Assembly (NCBI GenBank): GCA_043767805.1
Contig: JAYUGC010000014.1
Location: 21,050 to 85,049 of the forward strand
Source: Pseudomonadota bacterium
Lineage (GTDB): Bacteria > Bdellovibrionota > FAC87 > UBA2466
Reading direction: 5' to 3'
DNA length: 64,000 nt
The notes beneath the pieces are model-generated. The model saw only the letters and a list, made by a program, of their open reading frames with translations, was not told where the DNA came from and searched no databases. Positions 2,138 through 62,462 of the stretch are shown here, piece by piece; position 1 is the first letter of the stretch; each line of letters begins with the position of its first letter. The translations under genes and the position numbers were made by a program.

Positions 2138-2141
2138 GGGA

Positions 2142-3461
2142 ATGTGGTTGTTAGCGTTGCTGATGTCCTGGAGTACGCTCGGGGCGACGAAGGTAGGTAA
2201 CGGCGATGACGGCGCGGATCTCGAAGCCGGCACGCCGGTCACCGAAGGGCCGATTCTCGAGGCGCGGGACGCGGCCGTGAAAAAGCTCGAGTCCTTGAAC
2301 GTACGCGGCATTCCAGGCCTCGGGCAACTCGCGCCCGAGGCGGCAAGCGCGAAGCTCGTCATGGCGAAAGAAGACGTTGAAGCGCGCGTGCAGGAAGACC
2401 AGGGTGCCTTTCACGTGAACTTTCAGGGCAAAGTCTACGCCCGCACTTTTGCGGAGACTCACGCGGCGACTCGCTTTTTCCCCGCCGCCTTGAAGCTCGA
2501 TAAAGAGCAGCTCACGGCGCTCCATATTCACGAAGCACTCCACCGCGCGTTGCCCGAGAGCGTGCGCGAAAACGAGAGCACCGTCGCGGCCATTACGCTT
2601 TCGATGACATCCCCCGAGGCAAATCACGACCGCGTTCGCCACACGGTTGCTTCCCTCGTGCCCGAAACGGTCATCGCCAAAGACGCGAAGCCCGTGGAAA
2701 TCGATCATTTCAAGACGCCCTCGCAAGTCGGCTATCGTTACACTTTGTTTCAGTCGGGAAACACGCCGTCGCAGTATCCGATTCAGTCGATGCACTCGGT
2801 GGTGAGCGAGCTTTATCCTTTTGGTGGCTTGAACGCGCCCTTCGGTATGGGCATCGAAGGCTCTCTGGTGAAAGACGCTAAGGGCAGTCACATGGGCCCG
2901 CTCGGGCTATCGGCGCGACTTAGAGCATGGACCGTGCGGGACTTCGCCGTGGGGTTCTGGGCCGAGGCGAGCCTTAATACGCTTTCCGCCGACGAGCTCA
3001 AAAATTCTCCTTTCGGACGCGATGTTTTCTCGGTGGGAATCTCGTTCAAAAAAGAGCTGACCCGCTTTTACGTCGAGAATCGGGTTGGTATCAGTTTCGC
3101 GGGCGCCGCCGCGCAAAACGTGGGGCTCGTGGCCTATAAGTATGACTACGGTCACGTATGGGATGTGAACCTACGCGCGGGAACGACCCTATGGAAAATC
3201 GACCTTGGAGCCTACGTCGATCTTAAATTGGCCGACCACTTGCGAGTGTCGGGTGGCGCCTTCAATTACGATAGCGGCCGGTACCGGATCCTTTCGGGAG
3301 GTCCGGAGATCGCTTTTCGCACCGAGGACGTGGTTTTCTCCGTCTTCGGCCGGTTTCTTCTCGATTCCACCAAGGGGGCGAGCTTCGATTACTTAGGCAA
3401 CCTCCTCGGCGCCGGCGTGGCTCAGGGTGGCGTAGGCGCGAGCCTGGGGGTCTTCTTCTAA
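2142..3461 (+). CDS. Secreted protein, probable outer-membrane beta-barrel (hypothetical)
   Basis: Signal-like N-terminus MWLLALLMSWSTLGA with RBS AAGGG 6 nt upstream. C-terminus ends ...GASLGVFF, the aromatic terminal residue typical of OM beta-barrels. Start at the internal ATG avoids overlap with the upstream gene. Confidence 0.5.
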   Translation: MWLLALLMSWSTLGATKVGNGDDGADLEAGTPVTEGPILEARDAAVKKLESLNVRGIPGLGQLAPEAASAKLVMAKEDVEARVQEDQGAFHVNFQGKVYARTFAETHAATRFFPAALKLDKEQLTALHIHEALHRALPESVRENESTVAAITLSMTSPEANHDRVRHTVASLVPETVIAKDAKPVEIDHFKTPSQVGYRYTLFQSGNTPSQYPIQSMHSVVSELYPFGGLNAPFGMGIEGSLVKDAKGSHMGPLGLSARLRAWTVRDFAVGFWAEASLNTLSADELKNSPFGRDVFSVGISFKKELTRFYVENRVGISFAGAAAQNVGLVAYKYDYGHVWDVNLRAGTTLWKIDLGAYVDLKLADHLRVSGGAFNYDSGRYRILSGGPEIAFRTEDVVFSVFGRFLLDSTKGASFDYLGNLLGAGVAQGGVGASLGVFF

Positions 3462-4108
3462 TGCGCGCTTTTCTCGCCTTGCCTCTGTTGGCACTTCTCT
3501 CCGGCTGCGGGTATCCGTACTTGGGAGGAACAACCGCTCCCTCCGTGTCCCAAACGTTTTCGCTCGACGCCGTGAAACAAATTTCTCCGGACATCGTCGG
3601 CGGAGACACGCCGTCCGCGTACGGACAAGCCGCTTATGACTTGGCGAGTGAAGCGCGGCTGCTTTTTCGCTACGAAAGTTTCAGTACGCACGTGAGCAAC
3701 GTGAATCTAGAAAATAACAAGCGGGTCCTCGTGCAGGTAACCGTGGAAAGCGACCCCTCCGAGGCGCGCACTCGCTTGAAGCTCTGTCCGCTCGTTTCGG
3801 ATTGGATGATGCTGGCGACTTGGACTCTCGCGCACCCGTTCGGACTCGGCGGGCAGTGGAAGAGCCCCGGAGCGGATTATGATGGCTCCGCCTGCGAGTC
3901 CGCTCAGCCCGTACCGGTCACTCCCGACCTGGATTACAAGCCCGAGCGGCTTTTCTTCGACATGACCCAGTGGTTTGTCGACTATGCGCGAGGACGCAAC
4001 GTGAATTACGGCTGGGTGCTCAAGGCGTCGGGCACCGTGCGTGTCGTGGGGGATACTTCGGCTAGTAACTCCCCGCGGGTCTACTTCGAAAAATACCTCA
4101 CTTATTAA
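3461..4108 (+). CDS. Lipoprotein, hypothetical
   Basis: N-terminus MRAFLALPLLALLSGCGYP contains a lipobox (LSGC). 215-aa ORF following the previous gene with TAATG overlap. Confidence 0.5.
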   Translation: MRAFLALPLLALLSGCGYPYLGGTTAPSVSQTFSLDAVKQISPDIVGGDTPSAYGQAAYDLASEARLLFRYESFSTHVSNVNLENNKRVLVQVTVESDPSEARTRLKLCPLVSDWMMLATWTLAHPFGLGGQWKSPGADYDGSACESAQPVPVTPDLDYKPERLFFDMTQWFVDYARGRNVNYGWVLKASGTVRVVGDTSASNSPRVYFEKYLTY

Positions 4109-20677: not shown

Positions 20678-21051
20678 GGAGCGGTCTCCCGTTGAATGTG
20701 CGTGTCCCAGCCGAGGCGCTTGCGAATGGCTGGGTCAGAGTAATAAAGCGTGTAGAGAAACCCCTTCACACCCAGATCGAGCTGTCTGAGGAGCGAGCCC
20801 ACGGGATCGGGAAAGCGAGAGGCGTGGCCCGCGAGCCAAAAGAGCGCCGCGATGGCCCAACTGGGCAGCCAAGCAAAAAGCTCGGCGAGATCGACGAGCT
20901 TTTTGCGATCGCCCCCGGGTAAATAGGCGAGCATGCGATCGACTTCTCGAATGAGACCGCTTTGCGAGAAAGACGGAAGTCCTTCCGTTCCCGGCACGAG
21001 AAGATCGCCGGCTTTCTCCATTCCGCGTGTCGCTTTGGGAGTGAGGATCAT
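20674..21051 (-). CDS. Small hypothetical protein (putative accessory subunit of the GMC oxidoreductase)
   Basis: 125 aa from the internal ATG that overlaps the GMC stop as ATGA. The longer ORF upstream would overlap the GMC gene. Confidence 0.45.
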   Translation of the reverse strand: MILTPKATRGMEKAGDLLVPGTEGLPSFSQSGLIREVDRMLAYLPGGDRKKLVDLAELFAWLPSWAIAALFWLAGHASRFPDPVGSLLRQLDLGVKGFLYTLYYSDPAIRKRLGWDTHIQRETAP

Positions 21052-22430
21052 TTGATTACCTCCGCGGCGGCCCGAAGGGACAAAGCTAAAATGGTGAGGG
21101 ATGGGTTTAAGCCAGGGGCACTCGGAAAGACGGAGGAATCGGCGGAGTAGACGTGCTTTTCGCCGTGGAGTCTGAAGTCGGCGCCGACCACAGACGTTTT
21201 CGGATCTCTCCCCAGCGCGCATCCACCCATCAGATGAAGCCCGATGGTTACGCGGCCGGGGAGAATCTGCCGGGCGCCGGTCGACCGAAAAATGCGGGAG
21301 ATGGCGTTCATGCCGGCGGCTCGCCTGCGCAAATCTTCCGCGTTCCAGTTTTTATCGACGACCGTAGCGCCTCCCGGGCCAACTCGAATCTGACCGGCGT
21401 TCGTGTCTCGCACGGCCACTTCGATGCACGCGAAATGGCGAAGGCGAGTCATCATCGTCTGATGGGCTTTGCCAGCTTGGGGCAAGAGCATCGCGAGGCC
21501 CACGGGCGGCGCGAAAACATTTTCGAGTTTGAAGCCTTGGCGGCGAAACCCCGGGTCATCGGATTTCATCGTCTGAAAAGATCCCCGAAAGGCATCGACG
21601 GGCTCGTCGTAGAGCGCGAGCACCATCTCTTGCGGGTGGGTGTAGAAGCCCGTGCCGGTCGCGGGAAGTTTATCCGCGTACCCCGACTGCAAGAGCAACT
21701 TGCTATTGCCGATGGCGCCGCCCGCAAGAATGAGTCTCCGGCCCGAAAAGTGGGCGAGCGTCCCGTCTTTCAAGCGGACGTGCACTTCGGCGCCGTCGTC
21801 ATCGGAGCGCACGCCAAGCACTTCGGTTTCCGCGTAGAGCTCTAGTCCTGCTTCGAGCGCGTGCTTGAGCGTCGTGACGGGGGTGCTTTGCTTGCTGTCC
21901 AGCGGACAGCCTTGCAGGCACTCGATGCAATCGTTGCCTTCCTCGTTCTTACAATCCTTCTGAGCGCGGCGGAGGGCGGCCGCTTGATACCCGTTCCTGC
22001 GGAATCCCTCGTCGAAAATGCGCGCGTTCCGGTTTCGCTTTGAGCTTGGGATCGTTTGGAGCGAAAGCTGGGCTTCCGCTTTCTCGTACCAGGGGGCCAT
22101 TTCGCGCGGAGAAAAGAGAGAGGTGCCAGAAAGAGCTTCCCACTCATCCAAAGCGAGAGCATCGAAGCGATCGGCCAGCGCCTGGTTGACGATGGTGCCG
22201 CCGCCGACGGCTTTGGGCCGGAGGAGACCGAGGTCGGCCCGCCGGTTCAACTCGATTCCGCCCGCCCAATAGAGCTGGCTACTCGCGTCGATTTCCTCGC
22301 GGGGGTAGGTGGCCGCGGTGAAATGCTTGCCCGCTTCAAACAGCGCGCATTTGAGGCCCGCGCGACAAAGCTCTTGAGCAAAGGCGGAGCCCGAAACCCC
22401 GGACCCCACGATAAGGGCATCATAGCGCAC
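21048..22430 (-). CDS. GMC-family FAD-dependent oxidoreductase (choline/cholesterol-oxidase-like)
   Basis: N-terminal Rossmann YDALIVGSGVSGSAFAQELCRAGLKCALFEAG. About 460 aa. Typical GMC C-terminal domain. Confidence 0.8.
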   Translation of the reverse strand: MRYDALIVGSGVSGSAFAQELCRAGLKCALFEAGKHFTAATYPREEIDASSQLYWAGGIELNRRADLGLLRPKAVGGGTIVNQALADRFDALALDEWEALSGTSLFSPREMAPWYEKAEAQLSLQTIPSSKRNRNARIFDEGFRRNGYQAAALRRAQKDCKNEEGNDCIECLQGCPLDSKQSTPVTTLKHALEAGLELYAETEVLGVRSDDDGAEVHVRLKDGTLAHFSGRRLILAGGAIGNSKLLLQSGYADKLPATGTGFYTHPQEMVLALYDEPVDAFRGSFQTMKSDDPGFRRQGFKLENVFAPPVGLAMLLPQAGKAHQTMMTRLRHFACIEVAVRDTNAGQIRVGPGGATVVDKNWNAEDLRRRAAGMNAISRIFRSTGARQILPGRVTIGLHLMGGCALGRDPKTSVVGADFRLHGEKHVYSADSSVFPSAPGLNPSLTILALSLRAAAEVIK

Positions 22431-22448
22431 GCGCCTATTCTAACGCGC

Positions 22449-22663
22449 TAAAAGGTGTGTGGATACTTTTAGCTAGGCAATTGCCTTTTGGAAATCAAGA
22501 GCCAATAGGGCGCACGCGCCGTTATTTTGGCTAAAAGTATCCACACACCTTTTAGCCCCCCAAAAGGGCCCTGGATACTTTTAGCCAGCGCGGGCATGCC
22601 GCTTGCCCGTCTAAAAGTGTCCACACACTTTTTAGACGCTTAATGTGTCCAGACACCTTTTAG
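22449..22663. repeat. Five copies (both orientations) of a 24-26 bp dyad-symmetric motif CTAAAAGGTGTGTGGATACTTTTAGC in a 229-bp intergenic region
   Basis: Copies at 22449-22474 (+), 22530-22556 (inverted), 22561-22586 (+, degenerate), 22611-22635 (inverted) and 22645-22663 (inverted, partial). Also a GGCAATTGCC palindrome at 22477-22486. Confidence 0.8.
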
Positions 22664-23928
22664 AAGTCGGCGAGGGTGATGTTGGCGAGATTGATCTTGT
22701 TGGCGAAGACGGAATAGCAGAGGTAGGCCGCGAGGCACTTGCGGTTCTCGAGCCACGGCGGTTCGTACAGCGGATTTTTGATGAAGCCAGTCGCGAAGAA
22801 CGGCTCGAGCTGAACGATGTCGGCGAGAGTGAATCGCCCGGCGAAGAGATGCTCGGCGTAGTGAAACTTATTGGCTTGAATCGCCTTGCGCAAAAACGTG
22901 TGGGTGAAGATGAGGCCGCGCAGGTAGACGCAGTCCTTTGTAAACACCACGCCGCCCTTGGGATTGCCGCCGCGAAAAATGCGCGCGGCCGACTGGAAAC
23001 TTTCGGTATCTTCCTGTCCCGCCGCGAGAAAGTACTTAAACACTTCGATGAAGTCGGCGCCGTCCAAAGCCATCTGAATCCCGTGAATGCGCAAGGCAAT
23101 GCGCTCCAGACGGTTCAGGTCGATGGAAGAGGTGAAAAGCTCGGCGAAGGTGGCGATGCCTTCTTGAGTCGCCGTGGTGCGGGGCGATCCGAGCCCGAGA
23201 CTTGGCAAATTTTCCTGCGCCATCCCGTTCAAGGCGGTCAGCATGTGGACGTAGCCTTCATGATGGACGAGCTGGGGCAAATCATGCGCGGAAAAGCAGG
23301 TCGCGTCTCTAAGGCGCACCCGCTTCGGGCCCGCCGCGGCTTTGGAGGCGAGCTTCGGATCGACGATAATCTCGATCTTGTGATGCTTAAAGAAGGGAAC
23401 GAGCTCTTTTCTGAGAGTCTCCGCCGCTTGCTCCGCGGGGATGCAATATTCCCCGTCGTTTATCTTGTAGGCCGAGACAAAATCGCGCGTGCTCTCGATG
23501 AAGTAGTCGGCGGCTTGCAAGCTCGAGAGCTGATTGAGGCCGATGGCGTCGCTCGGTTTTCCGTAGAGCTCGATGGAGAGCTCGGTGAAAAGAGGCGTGC
23601 CCACGGCTCCGATGAGGCGCGCCGCCGTTACGTACGACTCGGCCGTCTGATAAATGTAGTTTCCGATGGGGTGGCGTTGATCCGCCTCCGCCATGATCGC
23701 TTTCAGCTCTTTGATGTTTTCCCGGTGATCGGGCGGGGTGTACTCCACCCGCGGAATCCTGGGCTTTCCGGCGCGCCAGGATTTCACGAAAGCGGTGCTG
23801 CGCTCCTCGTCCCACGAGAGCGTCGTCAGAATCTTGATGGGCTTTGCGGCCGCCACCAATTTGCGATCGAGCTCGGTGAAGCGGGCGAGTTGCTTGGCGG
23901 CTTTTTCTTTGGGAAGGGCGGAAGTCAC
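22660..23928 (-). CDS. DUF1704-domain protein (QEGLA-motif family, putative Tyr/Phe-carboxypeptidase-like)
   Basis: 422 aa. Contains TTATQEGIATFAE, matching the QEG[LI]A signature of TIGR02421/DUF1704. Confidence 0.6.
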   Translation of the reverse strand: MTSALPKEKAAKQLARFTELDRKLVAAAKPIKILTTLSWDEERSTAFVKSWRAGKPRIPRVEYTPPDHRENIKELKAIMAEADQRHPIGNYIYQTAESYVTAARLIGAVGTPLFTELSIELYGKPSDAIGLNQLSSLQAADYFIESTRDFVSAYKINDGEYCIPAEQAAETLRKELVPFFKHHKIEIIVDPKLASKAAAGPKRVRLRDATCFSAHDLPQLVHHEGYVHMLTALNGMAQENLPSLGLGSPRTTATQEGIATFAELFTSSIDLNRLERIALRIHGIQMALDGADFIEVFKYFLAAGQEDTESFQSAARIFRGGNPKGGVVFTKDCVYLRGLIFTHTFLRKAIQANKFHYAEHLFAGRFTLADIVQLEPFFATGFIKNPLYEPPWLENRKCLAAYLCYSVFANKINLANITLADF

Positions 23929-23977
23929 TGTCTGCTCATTTTACGGGGCGCCGCCCCGCTTGGGACGTCAATGCGCG

Positions 23978-24244
23978 TCAGAGAGGGGCGGCGTTCGGCG
24001 GAACGTCTCCGCTTCCCTCATCGCCTTCGTCAAAAACTTCGGGCGGAATGGTCTCCATGTCCTCTCCCACGTCGGACGGGTACGTGACGGACGGCGCGGC
24101 CTCGAGCGGCTGACCCCAAGCGGGGAAAATCACGTGGAGGAAAACGCCTCCAAAAATGAGAATCACCGCGATTAACACTCCGATGAGCGTGTTGCGCTGC
24201 TGCTTAGAAAGTTTGGAAGCCGGGGGCGATTTGCCGTCGATCAT
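23978..24244 (-). CDS. Small membrane protein with acidic/Pro-rich C-terminal tail (hypothetical)
   Basis: 88 aa from internal ATG (MIDGK...). One TM helix LIGVLIAVILIFGGVFLHVIF. The 5' two-thirds of the 343-aa track ORF is antisense to the hutG-like gene and rejected. Confidence 0.35.
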   Translation of the reverse strand: MIDGKSPPASKLSKQQRNTLIGVLIAVILIFGGVFLHVIFPAWGQPLEAAPSVTYPSDVGEDMETIPPEVFDEGDEGSGDVPPNAAPL

Positions 24245-26770: not shown

Positions 26771-27988
26771 ATGCGAACCCAGATCAGAGTAGGGCTGTTG
26801 GCCCTGTTTATTTCGGTATCAGCTTTTGCCGTCGACGCGCGCGTCGCGGGCGAGGCCAGTAACCAATTCGGCGTTCAACTTTTTAAATCGACCACGAAGC
26901 GGACGGCGAAGGGAAATAAATTTCTTTCGCCGCTCTCGGCGTACTTAGCGCTCTCGATGGCCTACAACGGCACCGAGGGAACTACCCAAGCCGAGATGGA
27001 AAAAGCGCTCGCGCTCACGGGCATGACCCGCGATGAAGCGAACGATGCCAATCGTCAGCTCATCGCCGCGCTCACCACGGGCCGCGACTTTGACTTGAGC
27101 GTCGCCAACTCCCTCTGGGCTCGTAACCAGTTCGTGATGAAGGACACCTTCTTGAATCCCGTGCGCACGAACTACGGCGCTCGCCTCGAGATGCTGGACT
27201 TCGATTTGCCCACCGCCTCGAAAACGATCAACGACTGGGTTAAGACCGCGACCCATAGCAAGATCGACTCCATCGTTCCGGACAAGCTCGATCCGCAGCT
27301 TCGCCTGGTGCTCATCAACGCGACCTACTTCGAAGCGAAGTGGACGGCCCCGTTTCAAAACTCGGGCACGTACAATGAGCCCTTCAAACGCCCTGACGGC
27401 ACGCGCGTGATTGTCCCCACCATGCACAAAGCCATGGTGGGTAAGCACCTGAAGGCCAGAGAGTATGAGGCCATCGAGCTCCCGTACGGCAAATCGGCGG
27501 AAGCCTCGATGATCGTCGTGGTCCCCACGGACCTCGCGGCTTTCGAGACCGCGCTCTCGGCCAATCAATGGAAATACATCGCTACTCAGCTCACCGCCGC
27601 GCCGGCCGAGCTCGGAACGCTTGCGCTTCCGAAAGTGGAGATCACCTACGAGTCGAGCCTCGTCGATTCGCTCAAGCAACTCGGCATGGTTCGGGCCTTC
27701 GATCTGAAGAACGCTGAGTTTAAGCCGTTGAGCGACGAACAAGTCGGCATCTCCGATGTGCTTCAGAAAACCTACGTAAAGGTATTCGAAGAAGGCACCA
27801 TCGCCGCGGCCGTCACGAGCGTCAGCGTCGGTGCGGCTTCGATTCCGCAGTACAAATTCCAAATGAAGGTGGATCGCCCGTATCTCTTCGGCATCCAGGA
27901 CAAGAAAACCGGCACGCTCCTTTTCATGGGAACCGTGCAGGAGCCCGAAGGCGGCAAGCTTCCGCCTCCGCCGAAGCCTCGCCCTTAG
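26771..27988 (+). CDS. Secreted serpin-family protease inhibitor
   Basis: Signal peptide MRTQIRVGLLALFISVSAFA. Hinge/RCL EEGTIAAAVTSVSVGAAS. Serpin signature FQMKVDRPYLFGI (cf. F.[VA]D[HR]PF[LIVMF][FY][LIVMFY]I). Pro-rich C-terminal tail. Confidence 0.85.
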   Translation: MRTQIRVGLLALFISVSAFAVDARVAGEASNQFGVQLFKSTTKRTAKGNKFLSPLSAYLALSMAYNGTEGTTQAEMEKALALTGMTRDEANDANRQLIAALTTGRDFDLSVANSLWARNQFVMKDTFLNPVRTNYGARLEMLDFDLPTASKTINDWVKTATHSKIDSIVPDKLDPQLRLVLINATYFEAKWTAPFQNSGTYNEPFKRPDGTRVIVPTMHKAMVGKHLKAREYEAIELPYGKSAEASMIVVVPTDLAAFETALSANQWKYIATQLTAAPAELGTLALPKVEITYESSLVDSLKQLGMVRAFDLKNAEFKPLSDEQVGISDVLQKTYVKVFEEGTIAAAVTSVSVGAASIPQYKFQMKVDRPYLFGIQDKKTGTLLFMGTVQEPEGGKLPPPPKPRP

Positions 27989-28004
27989 TGGGTTAGCGTT
28001 CTCC

Positions 28005-28087
28005 AAGAGACCCCGGCGGGCGCCATTCAACGTTCAAGCTTAGCTTGAACGTTGAATGGGTACGGCCTGCCGGGGTCTCTTTTTTTG
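28005..28087 (+). terminator. Rho-independent terminator (long nested hairpin plus T7)
   Basis: Inner arm CATTCAACGTTCAAGC-TTA-GCTTGAACGTTGAATG and outer arm AGAGACCCCGGC/GCCGGGGTCTCT, followed by TTTTTTT. Confidence 0.75.
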
Positions 28088-28132
28088 GGCGAGACAACTC
28101 GGATAAAACCGGCTAAAAAGTCGGGTAGTTAC

Positions 28133-28204
28133 TGGGGCGTAGAAAAGCGGTAATTCACTGGATTTTGATTCCAGCATTCCCAGGTTCGAATCCTGGCGCC
28201 CCAA
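28133..28204 (+). tRNA. tRNA-Gln (anticodon UUG)
   Basis: Cloverleaf: acceptor TGGGGCG/CGCCCCA, anticodon stem CTGGA/TCCAG with loop TTTTGAT, T-arm CCAGGTTCGAATCCTGG. Closely matches E. coli tRNA-Gln(UUG). Confidence 0.9.
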
Positions 28205-42859: not shown

Positions 42860-44308
42860 ATGGCGATTTCAGAAATCCTCGATATCGGTAAATCGGGCAT
42901 GGCGGCCAACCGCCAGGCGATGAATACGGCTTCGAACAACATCGCCAACGCCAATACCCCCGGTTACTCCCGCCAGCGCGCCGTTTTTACTCCTACCGAG
43001 CAGACTTTCATCAACGGCGTGCGCATCGGCCGCGGCGTGCAGGTCAAAGAAGCGCTTCGCATTCACGACGTTTTCGTCGAAAAGCAGCTCATCGAAGAAG
43101 GTAAATCTTTTGGCTCGGCGAAGGCGCGCTCGGAAGTCTTGAAGCGGGTGGAAGGCTCGCTCGCAACCGACTCCAACCGCGTGACCGATCTGATGAACAA
43201 TTTCTTCAACGACGTGCGCGAGCTTTCGGTGAACCCGGAACAGGTCGCGCTCCGCTCGTCGGTGCTGATGTCGGCAAAGAACGCGGCCGGCGGCTTTCGC
43301 GAGCTGGGCGATTCGCTGCGAGGCATTCGCGAGAACCTAGACACGCAAATCGAGGTCGACGTCGTTCAGGTCAACTCGCTCGCCAAAGAGCTTGCGGGAC
43401 TAAACGTGAACATCGCTTCCGCCGCGGCTCGCGGCGTGGAAGCCCCTCACGAGCTTGAAGATCGCCGCCAGCAGGTCATGCAGGAGCTATCCGAAAAGAT
43501 GGGCGTCGACAGCACCACCGATCAGTTCGGCCGCAAGGTCGTGCAAATCGGCGGCATCGGCGTCCTGGTCAACGGCGATCAGGTGAACGAGCTCATTACC
43601 ATGCGGACTCCGCCGTCGGAAGGTAAGGCGGCCGGCTCCGTCGACATTTTCATCAAGGACGGCAATGGGCTGTCGAAAGTCACTTCCCGCATCGACCAGG
43701 GAAGCATCGGTGGCAGCATCCACGTCCGCGACAACCTCATTACGAAATCCTTGGGCGATCTCGATCGCTCGGCGTTTCAGTTCGCCTCTCGCGTGAACGA
43801 AATCCACCGCGAGGGGGTGGGCGCCGACGGACAGACGGGCAGAAATCTCCTCACCCAGCCCGACGGCGAGCACGACGCGAGCCAGTTCTTGAAATTATCA
43901 GCCGACCTCGAAGGCAATCCGGATGGCTTGGCGCTGGGCTACACGCCCAACGCGCCTTCCGATAACCGAGTGGCTTTGGAGCTGACTAAGCTCCAGGAAG
44001 AGAAAATCGTCCCGTCCCGGAGGCAAGGCGAGGGCACGCTCTCCCAAGGCGGCGGCCAGACTTTGAACGAGTCTCTTACGACTCTCGTAGGTGAAATTGG
44101 CCTGCAGACCCGCAACGAAGAGCAGGCATTTCAGCGCCAAGACAGCATCATGAAGCAGCTGAACAACTACCGCGAGTCCGTATCGGGCGTGAACCTCGAG
44201 GAAGAGGCGATGAACCTCATGCAGTATCAGACGGTTTACAATGCTTCCGCCAAGGCCATGAAGGTCGGCGCGGAGCTCTTTGATACCTTACTTCATATCG
44301 TCGATTGA
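42860..44308 (+). CDS. flgK: Flagellar hook-associated protein 1 FlgK
   Basis: ILDIGKSGMAANRQAMNTASNNIANANTPGYSRQ N-terminal signature. 482 aa. Confidence 0.85.
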   Translation: MAISEILDIGKSGMAANRQAMNTASNNIANANTPGYSRQRAVFTPTEQTFINGVRIGRGVQVKEALRIHDVFVEKQLIEEGKSFGSAKARSEVLKRVEGSLATDSNRVTDLMNNFFNDVRELSVNPEQVALRSSVLMSAKNAAGGFRELGDSLRGIRENLDTQIEVDVVQVNSLAKELAGLNVNIASAAARGVEAPHELEDRRQQVMQELSEKMGVDSTTDQFGRKVVQIGGIGVLVNGDQVNELITMRTPPSEGKAAGSVDIFIKDGNGLSKVTSRIDQGSIGGSIHVRDNLITKSLGDLDRSAFQFASRVNEIHREGVGADGQTGRNLLTQPDGEHDASQFLKLSADLEGNPDGLALGYTPNAPSDNRVALELTKLQEEKIVPSRRQGEGTLSQGGGQTLNESLTTLVGEIGLQTRNEEQAFQRQDSIMKQLNNYRESVSGVNLEEEAMNLMQYQTVYNASAKAMKVGAELFDTLLHIVD

Positions 44309-44310
44309 TT

Positions 44311-45216
44311 ATGTCTACCAGCCGCGTATCCACAGGCCAGATGTACACCAACGCTCAACAGCACGTGGCCTCGGCCCGTGACAAAGAGCAGCTCTCGGCT
44401 GAGAAAACGTCGACTAATAAACAGATCAATCGCCCCAGCGAAGACCCCGCCGGCTGGATGCTCGCCAACACTTTGAAAGACGATCTCAGCGTGCGCGAAA
44501 CGCTGACCAAGAACGCTCAGGTCGCCAATCACGTATTGACCGCGACCGAGACTATTTTCGATCAGGCGCAACAGTACGTGAACCGCGCTTATGAGCTGGC
44601 CATCGGTAACTCCGGCACCGCCCTCGGCGGTCCCGTCGCTCGGCAGGGAGCGCTGACCGAAGTGCAGGGCATTTACGAAGGCTTGCTCCAGGCGCTCAAT
44701 TTTCGGTACGGAAGCCGCACGCTCATGGCCGGTCATCACAGCCAGGGACCGGCGTTCGATGCGAACGGAAATTTCGTGGGCGATAGCGGCGTGCTCGCCA
44801 TCGACATCGACAAGGAAACGCAAGTTCCGCTTACCATGTCCGCCGAGCGCCACATCCTCGGCATGGGCGAGAAAGGCGGCGTCAATATCGTTCAGACCTT
44901 TCACCGGCTGATGGACGGGCTAGGCACCGATGACTCCCAGATGATTCAGAGCACCTTGGAAGACATGAAGCGCGGGATCGAGCAGCTCTCCGCCGCGCGC
45001 GCCGAAGTGGGCACGCGCATGCAGAACATCGACCGTGCCTTGGGCCGCCACGCTTCCCATCTCATCAGCACGGCGGAGCAGGTTTCCAAGATCGAGGACG
45101 CGGATGCCATCAAGGCGTTCTCCGATCTCTCCCGCGATCAGACCATTCTCAAAGCCGCGATCTCCACCAGCGAGAAAATCCTCTCGCAAGACGCGGCCAG
45201 TATCTTCTTCAAGTAG
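44311..45216 (+). CDS. flgL: Flagellar hook-associated protein 3 FlgL
   Basis: Flagellin-like N-terminal (MSTSRVSTGQMYTNAQQH...) and C-terminal helices. Follows flgK with overlap. Confidence 0.75.
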   Translation: MSTSRVSTGQMYTNAQQHVASARDKEQLSAEKTSTNKQINRPSEDPAGWMLANTLKDDLSVRETLTKNAQVANHVLTATETIFDQAQQYVNRAYELAIGNSGTALGGPVARQGALTEVQGIYEGLLQALNFRYGSRTLMAGHHSQGPAFDANGNFVGDSGVLAIDIDKETQVPLTMSAERHILGMGEKGGVNIVQTFHRLMDGLGTDDSQMIQSTLEDMKRGIEQLSAARAEVGTRMQNIDRALGRHASHLISTAEQVSKIEDADAIKAFSDLSRDQTILKAAISTSEKILSQDAASIFFK

Positions 45217-45222
45217 GAACCC

Positions 45223-45417
45223 GCGCGTCCCGCGCGTTTCGATCCGGGCAGTCACTGGTTGCTGGATGCTGGACCGAGGTAGGCTATTTTGATCTTAGCC
45301 TCCCGCACTTCTCAAAGCGCGGTACTGGCGTTCACGGGCAGTCCGCAAGGGAGAGATCTACTAATGGATTACCTCGGTCCAGCAACCAGTGACCGGGCTG
45401 GATCGAACGCGCGGGTA
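45223..45417. repeat. About 195-bp imperfect palindromic element (about 45-bp inverted arms around an 88-nt core) between flgL and csrA
   Basis: Left arm CCCGCGCGTTTCGATCCGGGCAGTCACTGGTTGCTGGA[TGCTGGA]CCGAGGTA. The reverse complement of the right arm (45371-45417) is CCGCGCGTTCGATCCAGCCCGGTCACTGGTTGCTGGACCGAGGTA. Several GGA motifs in the core. Confidence 0.7.
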
Positions 45418-45537
45418 GCGCGGGGGCTCGATTCACGGCGGGGGATGTCATAAAAGATACTGAAACGGATGAAGATTTGCTTAAGTCCCAGGCGCTAGCT
45501 GCCGAGAAGATTGGTGAGCCAAGTGACGGCTTACCCC

Positions 45538-45768
45538 ATGCTTGTACTTACCCGCAAATTAGGTGAAACCATCGCAATCGACGACGATATCAAAATCGTC
45601 GTCGTTCAGATCAAAGGACGCCAAGTCCGATTAGGTATCGACGCCCCTCGTCATACTAAGATCCACCGCGAAGAGATTTACCTCGAGATTCAGGAGCAGA
45701 ACAAATCTGCCGCTGAGTCCCAACCCACCCAGCCAAAAAAAGTTGCTAAGCAAGTACGTGCCAGCTAA
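45538..45768 (+). CDS. csrA: Carbon storage regulator / translational repressor CsrA
   Basis: MLVLTRKLGETIAIDDDIKIVVVQIKGRQVRLGIDAPRHTKIHREEIY is the canonical CsrA sequence. Start at the internal ATG. Confidence 0.9.
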   Translation: MLVLTRKLGETIAIDDDIKIVVVQIKGRQVRLGIDAPRHTKIHREEIYLEIQEQNKSAAESQPTQPKKVAKQVRAS

Positions 45769-45810
45769 CATTCAAGCTGGATTTCCCAAATAAAATCAGG
45801 AGAGCTGGGG

Positions 45811-46356
45811 ATGCAAATCGAAACCACGCGTTTCGGGACAGTGACTGTTGAAGATACCGACGTCATCACGTTTCCCGAAGGGATGCTGGGCTTCTCGAAG
45901 ATCCACGAGTACGTGCTGATAGAGCGCACGGACGACTCGCTTTTTGTTTGGCTACAAGCCTTAAAAAAGCCGAGCGTGGCCTTCCCGCTCCTCGAGCCGC
46001 AAATTTTCGAAATGAACTTCCGGGTCGACATGGAAGAAGCGGATCGCAAGATCCTGAAACTCGATAAGCTGAAGTTCGCGAAGGTCTTCTCCATCGTGAC
46101 GATCCCCTCGGATCCCTCGAAGATGACGGCGAACCTGAAAGCTCCCATCGTCATCAATTTGAAAAAACGCTTGGCTCATCAAGTCATCCTGCATCAGCAG
46201 GAGTACCCGATCCGGCGTGCGATTTACGCCGAGCTGCAAAAGCATTGCGCGGCTTCCCACCGTTCGGTTTTCCCGGACGTGGACGCCCAGCCGGCGTACC
46301 AAGCCATCCACATCAGCGAACAGATGCCCAGCGAAGGCGTCGAGCTGCACCGCTAA
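45811..46356 (+). CDS. fliW: Flagellar assembly factor FliW (CsrA antagonist)
   Basis: MQIETTRFGTVTVEDTDVITFPEGMLGF is the FliW N-terminal signature. RBS AGGAGAG. About 30-aa C-terminal extension relative to typical FliW. Confidence 0.8.
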   Translation: MQIETTRFGTVTVEDTDVITFPEGMLGFSKIHEYVLIERTDDSLFVWLQALKKPSVAFPLLEPQIFEMNFRVDMEEADRKILKLDKLKFAKVFSIVTIPSDPSKMTANLKAPIVINLKKRLAHQVILHQQEYPIRRAIYAELQKHCAASHRSVFPDVDAQPAYQAIHISEQMPSEGVELHR

Positions 46357-46395: not shown

Positions 46396-46851
46396 TCAGT
46401 TTCGCTTTTGTTTGAGCTCTTCGTAGAGAGCGAGAACGCGCTTTACGTACTCGCGTGTCTCTCGGAAGGGCGGAATGCCGCCGTAACGGGCGACGTTGCC
46501 GGGGCCCGCGTTGTAGGCGGCCAGCGCAAGCTTCAAATTGCCTCGGTAGCGGTTGATGAGCGATCGCAGATACTCGCAGGCGCCCATCAAATTGTTCACC
46601 GTGTGATAGGGCGCGTGGATGCCGGAAGCGTCCGCCGTTTTCGGCATGACCTGCATGAGGCCCATGGCGCCCTTGGGAGACGTGAGCGGCTTGAAATTGG
46701 ACTCCTGCTTCACTATCGCGGTGACGAGCTTCGGGTCGACGGAAGCTCGCAGGGCGGCGTCTTTAATCTTCTGCTGAAGATCCGCCGAAGCCCAGCCGGT
46801 CAAAAGAAAGCACGCCGCCGCGAGGGCGGCGCTTCTAGAGAGAAACGCCAT
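46396..46851 (-). CDS. Lytic transglycosylase (SLT domain), secreted
   Basis: Signal peptide MAFLSRSAALAAACFLLTGWASA. Catalytic-Glu region VKQESNF. GLMQVMP and AYNAGPGNV motifs of SLT family 1. Confidence 0.75.
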   Translation of the reverse strand: MAFLSRSAALAAACFLLTGWASADLQQKIKDAALRASVDPKLVTAIVKQESNFKPLTSPKGAMGLMQVMPKTADASGIHAPYHTVNNLMGACEYLRSLINRYRGNLKLALAAYNAGPGNVARYGGIPPFRETREYVKRVLALYEELKQKRN

Positions 46852-48058
46852 AGGAGAAGCCGTAGCTGCCCAAGAGGATGCTGCCCGCGCCCATGTAGAA
46901 TTTGAGCCCGCCACGGAGATTCGCACCGAGCAAGGGGACGGTGACGGTGATGCCGGGCCCGAAGAGGAACCCGCCCGATAATTTCGCAAAGTCGACACCT
47001 ATATTGTCGGAAGCCTGGAAGAGAACCATCCCAAAACCAAGGGATGCGTCCAAAAACACGTACTTACCCGATAACGGCAGTTGGTACTTTGTGTCAAGAG
47101 AGAGGAGCCCGTAGGTGAAGATGTCCAAACCGGCTTCCACCGTCCAACGTTGCGCGACCCGATAGCCCGCGAACGCGCCCAGATCGACGACGCTATTGGT
47201 GGTGCCCGCATCGGCGTAGCGAGCCATGCCGAGGTTCGCGCCGAGATAAAAGGGCGTATCGGAAAGAGCGGCGAGTTCGCGGAAAAGATGGCCCGCTTCG
47301 GAAGCTTTGCGACGGGCGAGATCCGCTTCGTCGGAGCTGGCGTAGTTCTCGTTGCCCTTTTCGCTCCCCGCGCCGGGAAGGTATTGGAACTTTCCCGCCT
47401 TGTATTGAGCGAAGGCCTCGTTGAAAGTTTTGCGGAGCTTGTCCTCGAGAATGGGCGTAGTCAGCTGGGATTGTCCGGGGTCGAGAAGCGGATTGACGGC
47501 GACGATGAACTCGCCGGGTTTCAGCGTATCGAACATGAAAACGGAAATGCGCTCGCGATCCAGATAAGACAGGGCGATGAGCTCCGTCTTTAAAGTCGTG
47601 TGCGCTTTTTTCGTCTCCTCGGAAGTAAACGCGCCGAGGGTGTAGGCCGCGAGCTCGACGTCAAAACCCTCGATCGTTTTAAAGAGCTGACCGATCGCAA
47701 ATTGGAGAGCGGAGCCCAGGTTGTAACCGGACGTATCGCTGCCCGTAAGAATGGTGACGCTCCGATGGCCTTTGGTCGCCGGGCGAGGAGCCGCCGCTTG
47801 AGCCGCTGCCGCCGGAGGAACTTCCGCGGGAGCGGCTGCTTGGGCCTCGGGCTGCGCGGCGGTTTCGGGCGCGGCCGCAGGGGCAGCCTCGGGCTGCGCG
47901 GCTGCTTGAGCCTCGGGCTGCGCGGCGGTTTCGGGCGCGGCCGCGGGGGCAGCCTCGGGCTGCGCGGTCACCGCTTGCGCCGGGTCCGCGGGAGGAGCCG
48001 TTTCAGCCAGAGCCGCTAGAGCAATGCCAAGCCAAGCTATGAGTAGGGTGCGTCGCAT
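46835..48058 (-). CDS. Secreted protein with Pro/Ala/Glu-rich tandem repeats and C-terminal beta-barrel-like domain (hypothetical OMP)
   Basis: Signal peptide. 2 x 22-aa repeat AQPEAAPAAAPETAAQPEAQAA. Aromatic-rich C-terminal half ending GSYGFSYGVSL. Confidence 0.5.
   Translation of the reverse strand: MRRTLLIAWLGIALAALAETAPPADPAQAVTAQPEAAPAAAPETAAQPEAQAAAQPEAAPAAAPETAAQPEAQAAAPAEVPPAAAAQAAAPRPATKGHRSVTILTGSDTSGYNLGSALQFAIGQLFKTIEGFDVELAAYTLGAFTSEETKKAHTTLKTELIALSYLDRERISVFMFDTLKPGEFIVAVNPLLDPGQSQLTTPILEDKLRKTFNEAFAQYKAGKFQYLPGAGSEKGNENYASSDEADLARRKASEAGHLFRELAALSDTPFYLGANLGMARYADAGTTNSVVDLGAFAGYRVAQRWTVEAGLDIFTYGLLSLDTKYQLPLSGKYVFLDASLGFGMVLFQASDNIGVDFAKLSGGFLFGPGITVTVPLLGANLRGGLKFYMGAGSILLGSYGFSYGVSL
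47836..47967. repeat. 2 x 66-bp tandem direct repeat (coding; gives the Pro/Ala repeat)
   Basis: GCTGCTTG(G/A)GCCTCGGGCTGCGCGGCGGTTTCGGGCGCGGCCGC(A/G)GGGGCAGCCTCGGGCTGCGCG repeated twice. Confidence 0.8.
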
Positions 48059-55759: not shown

Positions 55760-57013
55760 ATGGAACACACCTTCTTCAGCCTGAATCGTTTCTTTCGGTT
55801 TTTAGGGTTCGTTTCGCTTTTCGAGCGAGTCGCGTACCGAGTCACGCTCAAGCTGTCGGGCTGGCTACAGCGCAACGCGCAACACCGGTGGCTTTTAATC
55901 GTGGCTTTGCGCGAGGGGCAGTCCACCATGGCTATTTCGCCTTTTATCGGCGAGGCCAACGGTATTAGTGGAGAATCAAAAGGCTCGTATAACTTCGAAT
56001 ACGAGAAGGCATTGAAAACGCCTTTGCAGCTGCAGAGACACACCGACACGTCGCACGAAAATGCGGCGCTCGTTTCTTTGCCGTCCTGGGCGAGAGAGAT
56101 TCAGCCGTTTTTACAGAATCAGTTGAGCGAGCACACGCGTCGGGCTTACGAGACCGACCTGCGTCAGTTCTTTTTGTTCCTGGAAGGCCGTCTCGACCCT
56201 CACAAGCTCGATACTTTGCGGCCCGAGCATCTCATTTTGTTCCGGAAATCCCTCGAGGAGGGGCGGGTGACCGGAAAACCCATGGCGAAGTCCTCCATCA
56301 ATCGAAAGCTCGCCGTGGTGAAGAGCTTTTTGAACTGGCTGCGCTTAAACCGGGTGATTCAGGAGAATCCGGGCCAGCTGGTCAAAGGCTATCCCCAGAC
56401 TCAAGAATCGGGCTTGAACGGGCTCTCCGATCTGGAGGCCCGTCGCATTCTGGATCTTCCCGATCGCCACTCCAAGTCAGGCGCTTTGCACCAAGCCATT
56501 CTCCACGTTCTACTCTATCTTGGGCTTCGCAAGGGCGAGCTCATTGGTTTGAAGGTGGGAGACTGGGATACGGAGCGTGGAACCGCGGTATTCAAGGTGC
56601 GGGGGAAGGGCCATCGCGTTCGCATCTTGCCGCTCACCGCCTCCGTGCGCGCGGCGCTCGATCATTATTTCTGGGTCTGTGGCCGTAGCCACAGCGAGAA
56701 AGAGGCGCCTCTCTTCATGCCGACGAAAAACCCGCGCTCAGGAAAGCTCGAGAAGCCGCTCAATCCGAACTCGATTACCTATCTCGTCGCTCGCTACGCG
56801 AAGAAGGCAGGCGTCTTGAAGAAGGTCTCCCCGCACTCTTGCCGCGCCACCTGCATCTCCAATGCGCTCGACAGGAAAGCCACTCAGCGAAGCGTGCAGC
56901 ATCTGGCGGGATGGTCCACGCCTCTCATGATTCAACGCTACGACAAGCGCCGCGAGGATTTGAAGAACTCCGCCGCCTTCCTCGTCGACTACCAAGAAAC
57001 CCACGCCTCCTAG
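55760..57013 (+). CDS. Tyrosine-type site-specific recombinase/integrase (phage-integrase family)
   Basis: Core-binding domain (TRRAYETDLRQFFLFL). Catalytic domain residues LGLRKGEL (Arg), HSCRATCISNA (H-x-x-R), LAGWSTPLMIQRYDK (catalytic Tyr). Confidence 0.8.
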   Translation: MEHTFFSLNRFFRFLGFVSLFERVAYRVTLKLSGWLQRNAQHRWLLIVALREGQSTMAISPFIGEANGISGESKGSYNFEYEKALKTPLQLQRHTDTSHENAALVSLPSWAREIQPFLQNQLSEHTRRAYETDLRQFFLFLEGRLDPHKLDTLRPEHLILFRKSLEEGRVTGKPMAKSSINRKLAVVKSFLNWLRLNRVIQENPGQLVKGYPQTQESGLNGLSDLEARRILDLPDRHSKSGALHQAILHVLLYLGLRKGELIGLKVGDWDTERGTAVFKVRGKGHRVRILPLTASVRAALDHYFWVCGRSHSEKEAPLFMPTKNPRSGKLEKPLNPNSITYLVARYAKKAGVLKKVSPHSCRATCISNALDRKATQRSVQHLAGWSTPLMIQRYDKRREDLKNSAAFLVDYQETHAS

Positions 57014-58526: not shown

Positions 58527-61500
58527 ATGAAATCACGTTTGAAACATTTGAATCGATTCTTGCTCGCACTGACCTTGAGCTTCGTCGTGTCCGCTTGCGG
58601 ACTGAAAAACGGCAAAGACGCGACCGATCGAAAGGACGGTTCAGTCACCGGCGGCGGCTCCTTGGCACTCCGCCGAGAGGCCTTCCGGACCACGCTCTAT
58701 CCCATCGTGAAGCGAGACTGCACGGAATGCCACGTAGCCTCGCAAGCGCCGACGTTTGCCGCTTCTGACGTAGGTGTCGCTTTTAACGCCGTTATGCCCA
58801 CGGTGAACTGGGAGAGCCTCTCTTCGTCAAAGCTCGTCGCGAGAAGCACCGACTCTCATTGCGGCCGTCCGAGCTGTGCGACGGATGGCTCGCTCTTTCT
58901 GAGCGCCGTTAAGGCCATGGACGACCAGTGGAAGCAGGGAACGGCCGGCTCGATCTTGGTGAAGTGGGATGCCGCGGTGGATTCCGGCACGGAAGAAGCT
59001 TTGGTCACGACCCGGAAGGAAGCTTCCTTCACGCTTTCGCGCGCGGTCGATCGCGAGCTGACTATTTCGTATCAGGTTTCCGGAACCGCCACGCTCGGCG
59101 TCGATCATGAGCTCGCGGCCACGGGTGAGGTGGTCATTCCGGCTTTGGAAAAGACCGGCAAAATTGCTATCCCCGTGCTCGACGACGCTCTCTTTGAGCC
59201 GGATGAAACGATCGTCCTGAAGCTCCTTCCGGCCGAAGGCATTGAAATTTCCGGTTCCGACACGTTCACGCTCACGGTTCAAAATGACGCCGATCCCGCG
59301 CCGAGCGTACAGTGGAAGCTCACCTCGTCGAGCGTCAACGAAGGCGCGAGCGCGACCCTCGAGGCCGAGCTTAGCGGCGCTTGCAGCGTCGACGTCTCGG
59401 TCCCGGTCACGGTTGCCGTCCCGGCCGGAGTCGCGGCCGCCGACATGCAGTTATCCAATGCTACCCTTCGCATTCCCGCGGGCATGCTCACGGGCTCCGT
59501 TACTCTCTCCCGGGTGCAGAACACTCTGGACGAAGTGGACGCGGTAGTAACGGTCGGTTTAGGAAATCCCACCAACGCCACGCTCGGCGCTAATACCACG
59601 CACTCTTTGACCGTTGCCGACGACGATGCGGCTCCCGCGGTGCAGTGGGCTCTGGCCTCTAGCTCCGTGAACGAGACGGTGGGCATGGCGACTTTTAACG
59701 CGACGTTGAGCGCCGTGAGCACGAAGACCGTCACGGTCTCCTATCAAATCAGTGGTGCCGTGGACGCGGCGCAAAGAGGCTTTTCGAATGGTTCGGTGAC
59801 GATCGCCCCGGGGCAGAGCTCGGGCTCGTTCCAGGTCGCGGTTACCAACGATCTGACTTTCGAAGGCCCCGAATCGATCATTATGACGCTTTCGTCGCCC
59901 GTGAATGCGTCTCTCGGCGCTCGCACGACCCATACCGTAGCGCTCGTCGACGATGAAACGGCGCCTCTCGCCGATTGGTCTCTGACCTCGTCTTCCGCGA
60001 GTGAGTCCGCGGGAACGGTTAATATTACGGCGAGGCTCAGTCGCGCGAGCCAGGCTAACGTCACTCTGAATTATACGGTCGCGGGCACGAGCACGAGCGC
60101 GGACCACGCTCTTGCCGCTGGTTCTTTCACCATTGCGGCGGGAGATACCACCGATATGCTTAGTTTCAATCTGACCAACGACGTTTTGGATGAGACGGAT
60201 GAGACCGTGGTGGTCACGCTCGCTAGTGTTACGGGCGCGTCGCTTGGCACGAACCTGATTCATACCCTTACGATTACGGATGACGATGCCTCTCCGGATT
60301 TGAATTTTGTTTCCGCGGCGCAGACCGTGGGCGAGAACGCCGGCACCGTGACGGCGACCGTCAGTCTCAGCGCGGCTAGTGGAGGAGCGGTAAGCGTTCC
60401 TTATACCGTCTCTGGAACGGCGACCAATCCCGCCGATCACAATCTCGCGGCGGGAACTCTGAGCTTCCCGGCGGGGACGACTTCCAAGACGATCTCTTTC
60501 AGCGTGGCCCAGGATTCCACGCCCGAAGCCGACCAGACGGTGATTATCACGCTCGGTACGCCGACCGCGGCTACGCTCGGCACCGGGCAAGTGCATACCG
60601 TCACGATTACCGAAAACACGCTCATTCCGATCGTGCAGTGGGGCCAGGCCACGCGGACGGTAGCCGAGGGCGTTGGTTCCGTGGTGATCCCGGTAACCTT
60701 GTCTTCTCAGTCTTCGAGCGCCATTACGGTGCCGGTTGCCGTGAGCGGCACGGCGACTGCCGCCGATTTTACTTTGTCGTCGGCGACTCTCTCCGTTCCG
60801 GCCAATTCGGCCACGGGAAGCGTCACCCTCACCGTCACTCAAGATACGATGGATGAGAACGACGAAACGGTCATTCTAACTCTGGGCACTCCCACGAACG
60901 CGTCTCTCGGCGCGACCTCGGTGCAAACGATAACTCTTACCGACGACGATAATGCTCCGAACGTGCACTTCAATGCCGCGACTCAAACCGTGGTGGAAGG
61001 CGCGACCGGCGCGGTTACGGTTACCGCGGCACTTTCCGCGGCGAGCGGCAAGGCGGTTAGCGTGCCCTTCACGGTCAGCGGCACGGCGAGCCGCCCCGGA
61101 GACCACAATCTCGTCAACGGAACCTTTAACTTCGCGGCCGGCGCTACCGCTGCCATGGTCTTGTTCAACCAGGCCGACGACACCATCTTTGAAGGCAATG
61201 AAACGATTATCCTGACTTTGGGCACGGCCACCAATGCGACGGTGAACACGCCGTCGGTCCTTACGCTGACTATTACGGACAATGAAGCCATGCCGGCCGT
61301 GCAATGGGCGATTGCCTCGCAAACGAAGCTGGAAAACGCGGGAACAGTACAGATTGCCGCGAACCTCAATCGCGCGAGCACCGCCGCCATCAGCGTGCCT
61401 TACGTGATTACCGGTACGGCGACGAGCACCGATCACAACTTGGCGGACGGTACCTTGCAGTTTCCCGCGGGCTCGCTTTCTGCGAGCGTCGTGCTCACCC

Positions 61501-62462
61501 TCTTAAACGACACCGTCGACGAGGATGCCGAGACGGTGATTTTGACTTTGGGCGCACCCACGGGCGCCACTAAAGGGGCGACGGTCACCCATACGTTGAC
61601 GATTACCGACGATGATCCTCTACCGGTGGTCACTTTTTCGGCGGCCGCGCAAACGGTGGCCGAGTCTTCGACCGCCACCCTTACGACGAACGTTCGCCTC
61701 AATACGGTGAGCGGCCGTGACGTGACGATTCCCATCGCGGTCAGCGGCTCGGCCTCGCAGCCTAGCGATCATAATTTGACGGTGACCAGCGTCGTCATTC
61801 CGAAGGGCACCTTGAGCGTGCCAATTAGCTTTAGAGTCTTTCAGGACACCGTTTACGAAGGTACGGAGTCGATTGTCATTAAGCTTGGTGCTCCCATGAA
61901 CGCCGCGGCCACTCTCGGAACGCCGGCGGAGCACATTGTCAGCATCGCGGACGACGATGCGCCTCCCGTGCTTCTGGTGGGAGGCAACTTAGCGCTGCAG
62001 TCGTTCAAGCAGTACGAGGAAAAGCTCACCAATCTTTTCGATTCCCCAATCGCGGTCAATAACGGCGTGGTCTACAACGCCGCCCTTCAAGTCGTTTCCG
62101 ATGACGGCGACCCGGGCGAGTTCAGCGATCCGATGGCCTCGGCCTATGTCGCCGCCGCCCACGCTCACTGCCGGGCGTTTGTCGTTGCCGAGGGGGCCCT
62201 GGCGCAAGCCGCCCGCACAATCAACGCGGGCGCGGACTTATCGGTTTACGCCAATAACACGGAAGCGACGAAGCGTACCGTGATTCGCCGGTACGTACAG
62301 GCGCTTTGGACCCGGGACCCGCTAGCGACAGAAGAAACGATCCTGCTCCAACTGATGGACGCGACCGCCGCCACGGTACTGCCCACCGGCAGTCCCTCCT
62401 TTAAGGCACACGTCAGCGTGTGCACGGCCGTCGCCGGAAGTCCCGAAGGAATTCGTAATTGA
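58527..62462 (+). CDS. Giant lipoprotein with N-terminal CXXCH domain, about nine tandem Calx-beta-like repeats and a distinct C-terminal domain
   Basis: Lipobox LSFVVSACG. DCTECHV motif. Nine roughly 110-aa repeats, each ending in an acidic ...T(I/V)TDDD(A/P)P... boundary and containing DE.DETVILTLG...NA.LG, typical of Calx-beta. 1311 aa. Confidence 0.7.
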   Translation: MKSRLKHLNRFLLALTLSFVVSACGLKNGKDATDRKDGSVTGGGSLALRREAFRTTLYPIVKRDCTECHVASQAPTFAASDVGVAFNAVMPTVNWESLSSSKLVARSTDSHCGRPSCATDGSLFLSAVKAMDDQWKQGTAGSILVKWDAAVDSGTEEALVTTRKEASFTLSRAVDRELTISYQVSGTATLGVDHELAATGEVVIPALEKTGKIAIPVLDDALFEPDETIVLKLLPAEGIEISGSDTFTLTVQNDADPAPSVQWKLTSSSVNEGASATLEAELSGACSVDVSVPVTVAVPAGVAAADMQLSNATLRIPAGMLTGSVTLSRVQNTLDEVDAVVTVGLGNPTNATLGANTTHSLTVADDDAAPAVQWALASSSVNETVGMATFNATLSAVSTKTVTVSYQISGAVDAAQRGFSNGSVTIAPGQSSGSFQVAVTNDLTFEGPESIIMTLSSPVNASLGARTTHTVALVDDETAPLADWSLTSSSASESAGTVNITARLSRASQANVTLNYTVAGTSTSADHALAAGSFTIAAGDTTDMLSFNLTNDVLDETDETVVVTLASVTGASLGTNLIHTLTITDDDASPDLNFVSAAQTVGENAGTVTATVSLSAASGGAVSVPYTVSGTATNPADHNLAAGTLSFPAGTTSKTISFSVAQDSTPEADQTVIITLGTPTAATLGTGQVHTVTITENTLIPIVQWGQATRTVAEGVGSVVIPVTLSSQSSSAITVPVAVSGTATAADFTLSSATLSVPANSATGSVTLTVTQDTMDENDETVILTLGTPTNASLGATSVQTITLTDDDNAPNVHFNAATQTVVEGATGAVTVTAALSAASGKAVSVPFTVSGTASRPGDHNLVNGTFNFAAGATAAMVLFNQADDTIFEGNETIILTLGTATNATVNTPSVLTLTITDNEAMPAVQWAIASQTKLENAGTVQIAANLNRASTAAISVPYVITGTATSTDHNLADGTLQFPAGSLSASVVLTLLNDTVDEDAETVILTLGAPTGATKGATVTHTLTITDDDPLPVVTFSAAAQTVAESSTATLTTNVRLNTVSGRDVTIPIAVSGSASQPSDHNLTVTSVVIPKGTLSVPISFRVFQDTVYEGTESIVIKLGAPMNAAATLGTPAEHIVSIADDDAPPVLLVGGNLALQSFKQYEEKLTNLFDSPIAVNNGVVYNAALQVVSDDGDPGEFSDPMASAYVAAAHAHCRAFVVAEGALAQAARTINAGADLSVYANNTEATKRTVIRRYVQALWTRDPLATEETILLQLMDATAATVLPTGSPSFKAHVSVCTAVAGSPEGIRN

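Follow-up and report, generated by a model that had tools for sequence, protein, structure and literature searches.

Does the long palindrome that separates flgL from csrA take part in the control of csrA, or is it an insertion that came to rest between the two genes? The element lies in a stretch of 64,000 nt (the window, to which all coordinates below refer unless a contig is named), where Pfam places FlgM, FlgN, FlgK and FlgL upstream of it and CsrA and FliW downstream. The initial annotation described a palindromic element with two arms of roughly 45 bp, one of them carrying a 7-bp TGCTGGA duplication, around an 88-nt core, and offered three readings, namely a structured leader controlling csrA/fliW, a small RNA with CsrA-binding GGA motifs, and a MITE. 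The reading favoured here, with a confidence that is about even, is that of a lineage-restricted, non-coding foldback insertion, most likely a MITE-like non-autonomous insertion or its relic, and not a conserved regulator of csrA.

Geometry, fold and independent assembly of the palindrome

Positions 45220-45424 form a 205-bp quasi-palindrome, which is the top-ranking local inverted repeat of the window. The inverted-repeat element of the initial annotation is real; its limits are slightly wider than the 45223-45417 first given, and its arms, core and internal duplication are refined as listed here, together with the neighbouring genes and signals.

44311-45216, + strand: flgL, hook-filament junction protein (Pfam Flagellin_N/Flagellin_C on the ORF 44305-45216; 301-aa product from the ATG at 44311 in Logan contig L007)
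45220-45281, no strand: left arm, 62 nt (repeat search and arm alignment)
45260-45273, no strand: 7-bp tandem duplication TGCTGGA TGCTGGA, in the left arm only (sequence, and a 7-nt gap in the arm alignment)
45282-45368, no strand: core, 87 nt (folding and alignment)
45369-45424, no strand: right arm, 56 nt (repeat search and arm alignment)
45481-45508, + strand: sigma-28 (FliA)-type promoter-like motif TTAAGT-N14-GCCGAGAA, upstream of csrA and downstream of the element (motif and conservation)
45513-45535, + strand: csrA leader hairpin GGTGAGCC-N7-GGCTTACC, 8 bp, ending 2 nt before the csrA ATG
45538-45768, + strand: csrA (Pfam CsrA, 7e-26)
45811-46356, + strand: fliW, CsrA antagonist (Pfam FliW, 9e-37)

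The element begins 3 nt beyond the flgL stop codon TAG; its left arm opens with the tandem 9-mer CCCGCGCGT CCCGCGCGT, and its right arm is followed by GGCTCGATTCACGG. In the gapped alignment of the left half with the reverse complement of the right half, the two arms share 49 matching positions and differ by three indels, the largest of which is the TGCTGGA duplication. About half of the core is palindromic as well (25 of 49 aligned columns); the stem thereby extends to an apex near 45328-45334, and the full 205 bp form a single hairpin of 79 pairs. As RNA, the + strand folds at -133.7 kcal/mol (z = -9.4) and the - strand at -119.9 kcal/mol (z = -9.1), and none of 200 shuffles folds as well as the element; the hairpin contains five G:U pairs on the + strand and four on the - strand. 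These nearly equal counts, together with the stable fold of either strand, suggest that the symmetry belongs to the DNA and not to an RNA made from one strand. The only internal ORF, of 54 aa, has no Pfam match.

The possibility of an assembly artefact was ruled out, both halves of the element being present at 100% identity in an independent assembly and the palindrome being imperfect. In particular, the Logan assembly of run SRR23617225 contains two contigs, 100% identical to the window, that together carry both halves: L007 ends at 45280 and L001 starts at 45273, with an overlap of only 8 nt. The 31-mers spanning 45272-45281 are all missing from this assembly, so that the independent confirmation covers the sequence on either side of this junction; one possible cause of the break inside the element is low coverage at a strong hairpin, another a heterogeneous population.

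The flgL-csrA junction in related lineages and the search for further copies

Loci related to this one were fetched from other assemblies by way of their FliW homologues; those homologues that come with source names (65-69% identity) are labelled Deltaproteobacteria, Bdellovibrionales or Proteobacteria bacterium. The junctions are as follows, in order of decreasing FliW identity.

Window: flgL-csrA spacer of 321 bp, the 205-bp element included
L002/L104 (FliW identity 95%): unrelated insertion of 2.57 kb, encoding an alpha/beta-hydrolase and an HNH endonuclease
JGI contig (90%): spacer of 74 bp (gene coordinates only, no DNA)
L003 (83%): spacer of 61 bp
L004-L006 (78%): spacer of 122 bp
L103 (75%): unknown ORF and a HiPIP gene in the junction
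L099-L102 (70%): spacer of 105 bp

The element is absent from all six related lineages, four of them with spacers of 61-122 bp and two with unrelated gene insertions, and this absence holds at the distance of the closest relative, about 80% identical in DNA, or beyond; within an unsampled species or genus the element could be old and conserved. The relatives' loci show no similarity to it in blastn and nhmmer searches, and Rfam gives no match on L002-L004. The homology of L002 to the window ends at 45217 and restarts at 45470. The insertion in L002 (positions 1089-3658, corresponding to 7089-9658 of L104) consists of the alpha/beta-hydrolase gene, a non-coding stretch of about 650 nt in which TTTCCTTGAGGAAATCG motifs recur, and the gene for the 279-aa HNH endonuclease, while that of L103 (1136-2010) comprises an unknown ORF of 173 aa and the HiPIP gene. 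The idea that the element is a deletion derivative of the 2.57-kb island was discarded, there being no similarity between the two.

The presence of unrelated insertions in relatives indicates that the junction after the flgL stop codon repeatedly gains DNA, the palindrome being one such gain. Where no genes have been inserted, reading of the sequence after flgL reveals a GC hairpin followed by a T-run in L099 and a small hairpin in L004; the element thereby appears to occupy the place of what would be, in relatives, an ordinary end-of-operon signal.

Further copies were sought at several scales. Within the 64-kb window, blastn (word size 7) and nhmmer return only the self-match and the inverted self-match, and there is likewise no copy in 20.5 kb of the 28.8-kb contig of the closest relative. 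The exact 20-mer of the right arm has no match in the species-representative GTDB genomes (596 Gb, scanned with two patterns) nor in the JGI metagenomes (also scanned with two patterns). The degenerate patterns that cover both arms gave 2 matches in Dehalococcoidia, 11 in metagenomes and 77 in viruses, none of which extends past the pattern; these were set aside as chance. No copy was found in the IMG/VR viral contigs, and blastn against plasmids and phages gave nothing apart from one 22-nt chance match. Finally, all six reading frames of the element were joined into a pseudo-protein, so that diverged copies annotated as spurious ORFs would be caught; among 5.8 billion predicted proteins it has no match at E <= 10.

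Other repeats do occur in the window. The hairpin motif CTAAAAG-N11-CTTTTAG, with the core TGGATACTTTTAGC, is repeated at 197-247 and 22431-22663 in four exact and two near copies, one of them 34 nt before the ORF 273-1286 (DUF354) and five in the divergent intergenic region between 21048-22430 (- strand) and 22645-24087 (+ strand); allowing up to three mismatches, it is matched 11 times against 2.6 expected. It may be the binding site of a regulator or a small repeat family; it was rejected as a canonical sigma-54 promoter, for which the spacing GG-N9-GC does not fit. Downstream of fliW, the ORF 46835-48058 (- strand) encodes a 407-aa protein without Pfam match, in which tandem 42/66-nt repeats at 47790-47963 encode an Ala/Pro/Glu-rich N-terminal region.

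Predicted transcription signals between the element and csrA

The FliA/sigma-28 consensus is TAAA-N15-GCCGATAA. The motif of this type that precedes csrA aligns with a counterpart in L002, L003, L004 and L098; a pattern scan recovers the full -35/-10 motif in L002, L003 and L004, while on reading a -10-like box is seen in L098, L099 and L103, its sequence at the matching place being GCCGATAA in L099 and ACCGATGA in L103. There is only one other sigma-28-type match in the window, at 42717, just upstream of flgK. The hairpin that follows the motif is kept in L002 and L098 as GGTGAGCC/GGCTCACC, with a G:C pair in place of the G:U pair and with different loops. The corresponding interval is 45481-45535 in the window, 3670-3725 in L002, 2390-2445 in L003, 3675-3727 in L004 and 1-44 in L098; the leader hairpin of the window, L002 and L098 is not accompanied by a visible Shine-Dalgarno sequence. 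To judge from these alignments, csrA-fliW would have its own sigma-28-type promoter motif across related lineages, to which the closer ones add the leader hairpin, and this hairpin may control the translation of csrA or the stability of its message.

Since the promoter-like motif lies downstream of the element, the latter falls outside the csrA leader that would be made from it; the element is therefore placed, on the grounds of motif and conservation and not of mapped transcripts, upstream of the putative csrA promoter. A transcript reading through from flgL would still include it. A simple scan of 44900-45900 calls neither a terminator-like site nor a + strand promoter; its one sigma-70-like match, against 0.5 expected, is a weak one on the - strand within the core (TTGAGA-18-CAAAAT, from 45315 to 45286).

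The GGA triplets on which the small-RNA reading had been built are not enriched: the element has five, against 4.1 +/- 1.7 in shuffles (p = 0.4) and a window average of 3.7 per 212 nt. In the minimum-energy structure both G's of all five are paired in the long stem, and none lies in a hairpin loop. By way of comparison, the sequence of the fliW ribosome-binding site (45795-45813) is AUCAGGAGAG, where an A(N)GGA-type motif overlaps the Shine-Dalgarno sequence; as a candidate CsrA site it is more conventional than any part of the palindrome. Rfam searches of the whole window at gathering thresholds return only a tRNA elsewhere, and the interval 45100-45600 gives chance-level matches only at E <= 10 (best E = 0.19). 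This tRNA, the only one of the window (28133-28204), follows a bacterial serpin gene (26771-28204 region; Pfam Serpin, 6e-97) and, after it, a perfect 18-bp palindrome at 28023-28059.

Two of the three readings of the initial annotation are not borne out by these observations. A structured 5' leader of csrA/fliW is at odds with the promoter-like motif and leader hairpin that stand between the element and the csrA ATG, and with the absence of the element from the six related lineages; a CsrA-binding small RNA is at odds with GGA triplets that are at background frequency and paired, and with the lack of a + strand promoter, a terminator, an Rfam match and conservation in the searches described above. 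The lack of conservation in relatives had been named beforehand as an outcome that would speak against these readings, and it is what was found for both.

Origin of the palindrome and its likeness to known systems

The MITE reading may hold. The element has long terminal inverted repeats (45220-45281 and 45369-45424, 49 matches), is small (205 bp) and non-coding, and is absent from the junction of its relatives; on the other hand, its ends show no visible target-site duplication, the searches returned no second copy, and membership of a MITE family is unproven. Its flanks, GTAGGAA and GGCTCGA, share no common direct repeat, with the qualification that the CG-rich, self-complementary ends could hide a short one. 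Among the 55 ORFs of the window, Pfam identifies neither a transposase nor a related insertion sequence; the only recombinase is a tyrosine recombinase encoded at 55760-57013, which carries a Phage_integrase domain and a SAM-like N-terminal domain. Its gene is followed by that of a 1311-aa protein with Calx-beta repeats (58527-62462).

In the foldback-insertion reading, the element would have entered the variable junction between the flgL stop codon and the sigma-28-type promoter of csrA-fliW. With its start 3 nt beyond the flgL stop codon, the element would form the 3' end of the flgK-flgL transcript, and there, in the 3' untranslated region, the hairpin of 79 pairs would have a passive effect: it might halt 3' exonucleases, be a target for RNase III, or slow read-through into csrA-fliW, which would keep its own predicted promoter. 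The poorly paired 87-nt centre would allow so long a palindrome to persist in the DNA. Seen in this way, the element is another palindromic insertion in a variable intergenic junction; in itself it matters little, and its context is more useful. If the hairpin does alter read-through or message stability, it offers a natural experiment in the rewiring of the coupling between flgKL and csrA-fliW.

A tentative alternative, of limited but appreciable probability, is that the palindrome is non-mobile and was formed on the spot, when a template switch or an inverted duplication acted on the intergenic DNA already there, its centre and arms having since decayed. Long palindromes are unstable in bacteria, in an SbcCD-dependent manner, and the palindromy of the element fades towards the centre, as it does in the palindromes that survive in bacteria; the element is moreover a single copy in everything searched, has no target-site duplication, and bears two marks of tandem slippage, CCCGCGCGT and TGCTGGA, each present twice. 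Against this origin, the arms have no detectable homology to the intergenic DNA of relatives, which is a weak test, the spacers being hardly alignable at about 80% identity or less. A resemblance of the right flank GGGCTCGATTCACGGCGGGGG to the right arm (15 of 21 by eye) is not above chance and was dropped. The evidence is in fact divided between the two origins: the long arms and the pattern of presence and absence fit a MITE-like one, whereas formation on the spot suits an element that is found once, lacks a target-site duplication and bears marks of slippage.

It is doubtful, and less probable, that the element is a functional structure of the flgKL 3' untranslated region specific to this lineage, whether it stabilises the message, is processed by RNase III, gives rise to a 3'-UTR small RNA, or acts as a hairpin-only terminator in place of the ordinary one of the relatives. 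It does lie at the same position as the GC hairpin and T-run of L099 and the small hairpin of L004, and its + strand folds 14 kcal/mol better than its - strand; yet it has no U-tract, the second component, beside a GC-rich stem, of an intrinsic terminator, and no terminator was called in the scan. The structure is not conserved and provides no covariation to examine, the G:U counts of the two strands are nearly equal, and Rfam has no match.

A more ambitious proposal, which we regard as improbable, is that of a lineage-specific module uncoupling csrA-fliW from flgKL, either through a segment flipped by a recombinase or through a 3'-UTR hairpin cleaved by RNase III; if true, such a module would be a new way to tune the CsrA-FliW-flagellin checkpoint in an uncultured lineage. 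The first of these forms, an invertible phase-variable switch in which a recombinase flips the core and reorients a promoter towards csrA-fliW, as in the flagellar switch of Clostridioides difficile, is very unlikely on the grounds of geometry and of the lack of a linked recombinase. Inverted repeats around a short core beside flagellar genes would suit it, as would a weak sigma-70-like site in the core that faces away from csrA in the present orientation, the tyrosine recombinase gene at 55760-57013, and the break of the Logan assembly close to the inner end of the 15-bp exact repeat TGCTGGACCGAGGTA. Nevertheless, arms of 56-62 nt are very long, and a core of 87 nt, partly palindromic besides, is short; the recombinase gene lies at a distance of 10 kb with no specific link to the element, and the promoter match is at the level of chance; as to the assembly, the contigs end at 45280 and 45273 where a branch due to inversion would be expected, by reasoning, at 45281 and 45267, and random breaks at low coverage explain them equally well.

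That the element acts as a small RNA sequestering CsrA, or as a csrA leader under CsrA control, is scarcely credible: it adjoins csrA and holds five GGA triplets, but these occur at background frequency and have both their G's paired within the stem, the scan gives neither + strand promoter nor terminator, the csrA promoter motif lies downstream, all the relatives lack the element, and in organisms with FliW, CsrA is antagonised through the FliW protein (PMC4894983; PMC4054197). GGA triplets near csrA do not make a Csr RNA.

With the sponge RNAs of the CsrB/RsmZ family the element has in common only the proximity of csrA and some GGA triplets; unlike theirs, its triplets are neither enriched nor in loops, and promoter, terminator, Rfam match and conservation are missing. 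With invertible promoter switches, among them the C. difficile flagellar switch and fimS, it shares inverted repeats that flank a short segment in a flagellar gene cluster, but its repeats are much longer and its segment much shorter than in the known switches, and no recombinase adjoins it. Like intrinsic terminators and REP-type 3'-UTR hairpins it stands directly after a stop codon, where L099 has a hairpin and T-run; it differs from them in having no U-tract, a stem about ten times the length of a terminator stem, and no repetition. Bacterial MITEs and foldback repeats include the Correia elements of Neisseria and ERIC of enterobacteria. The element differs from such repeats in that no second copy, visible target-site duplication or partner insertion sequence with matching ends was found, and its arms (56-62 nt) exceed most MITE terminal repeats; with no visible duplication, and a single copy in the DNA searched, it is not filed as a proven member. 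It resembles them in being about 200 bp long, non-coding and intergenic, in having long terminal inverted repeats, which together fold as a single hairpin, in being present or absent between related genomes, and in that it would be co-transcribed with a neighbouring gene as a stable stem; of all the systems compared, it is the bacterial MITE or foldback repeat that it most resembles.
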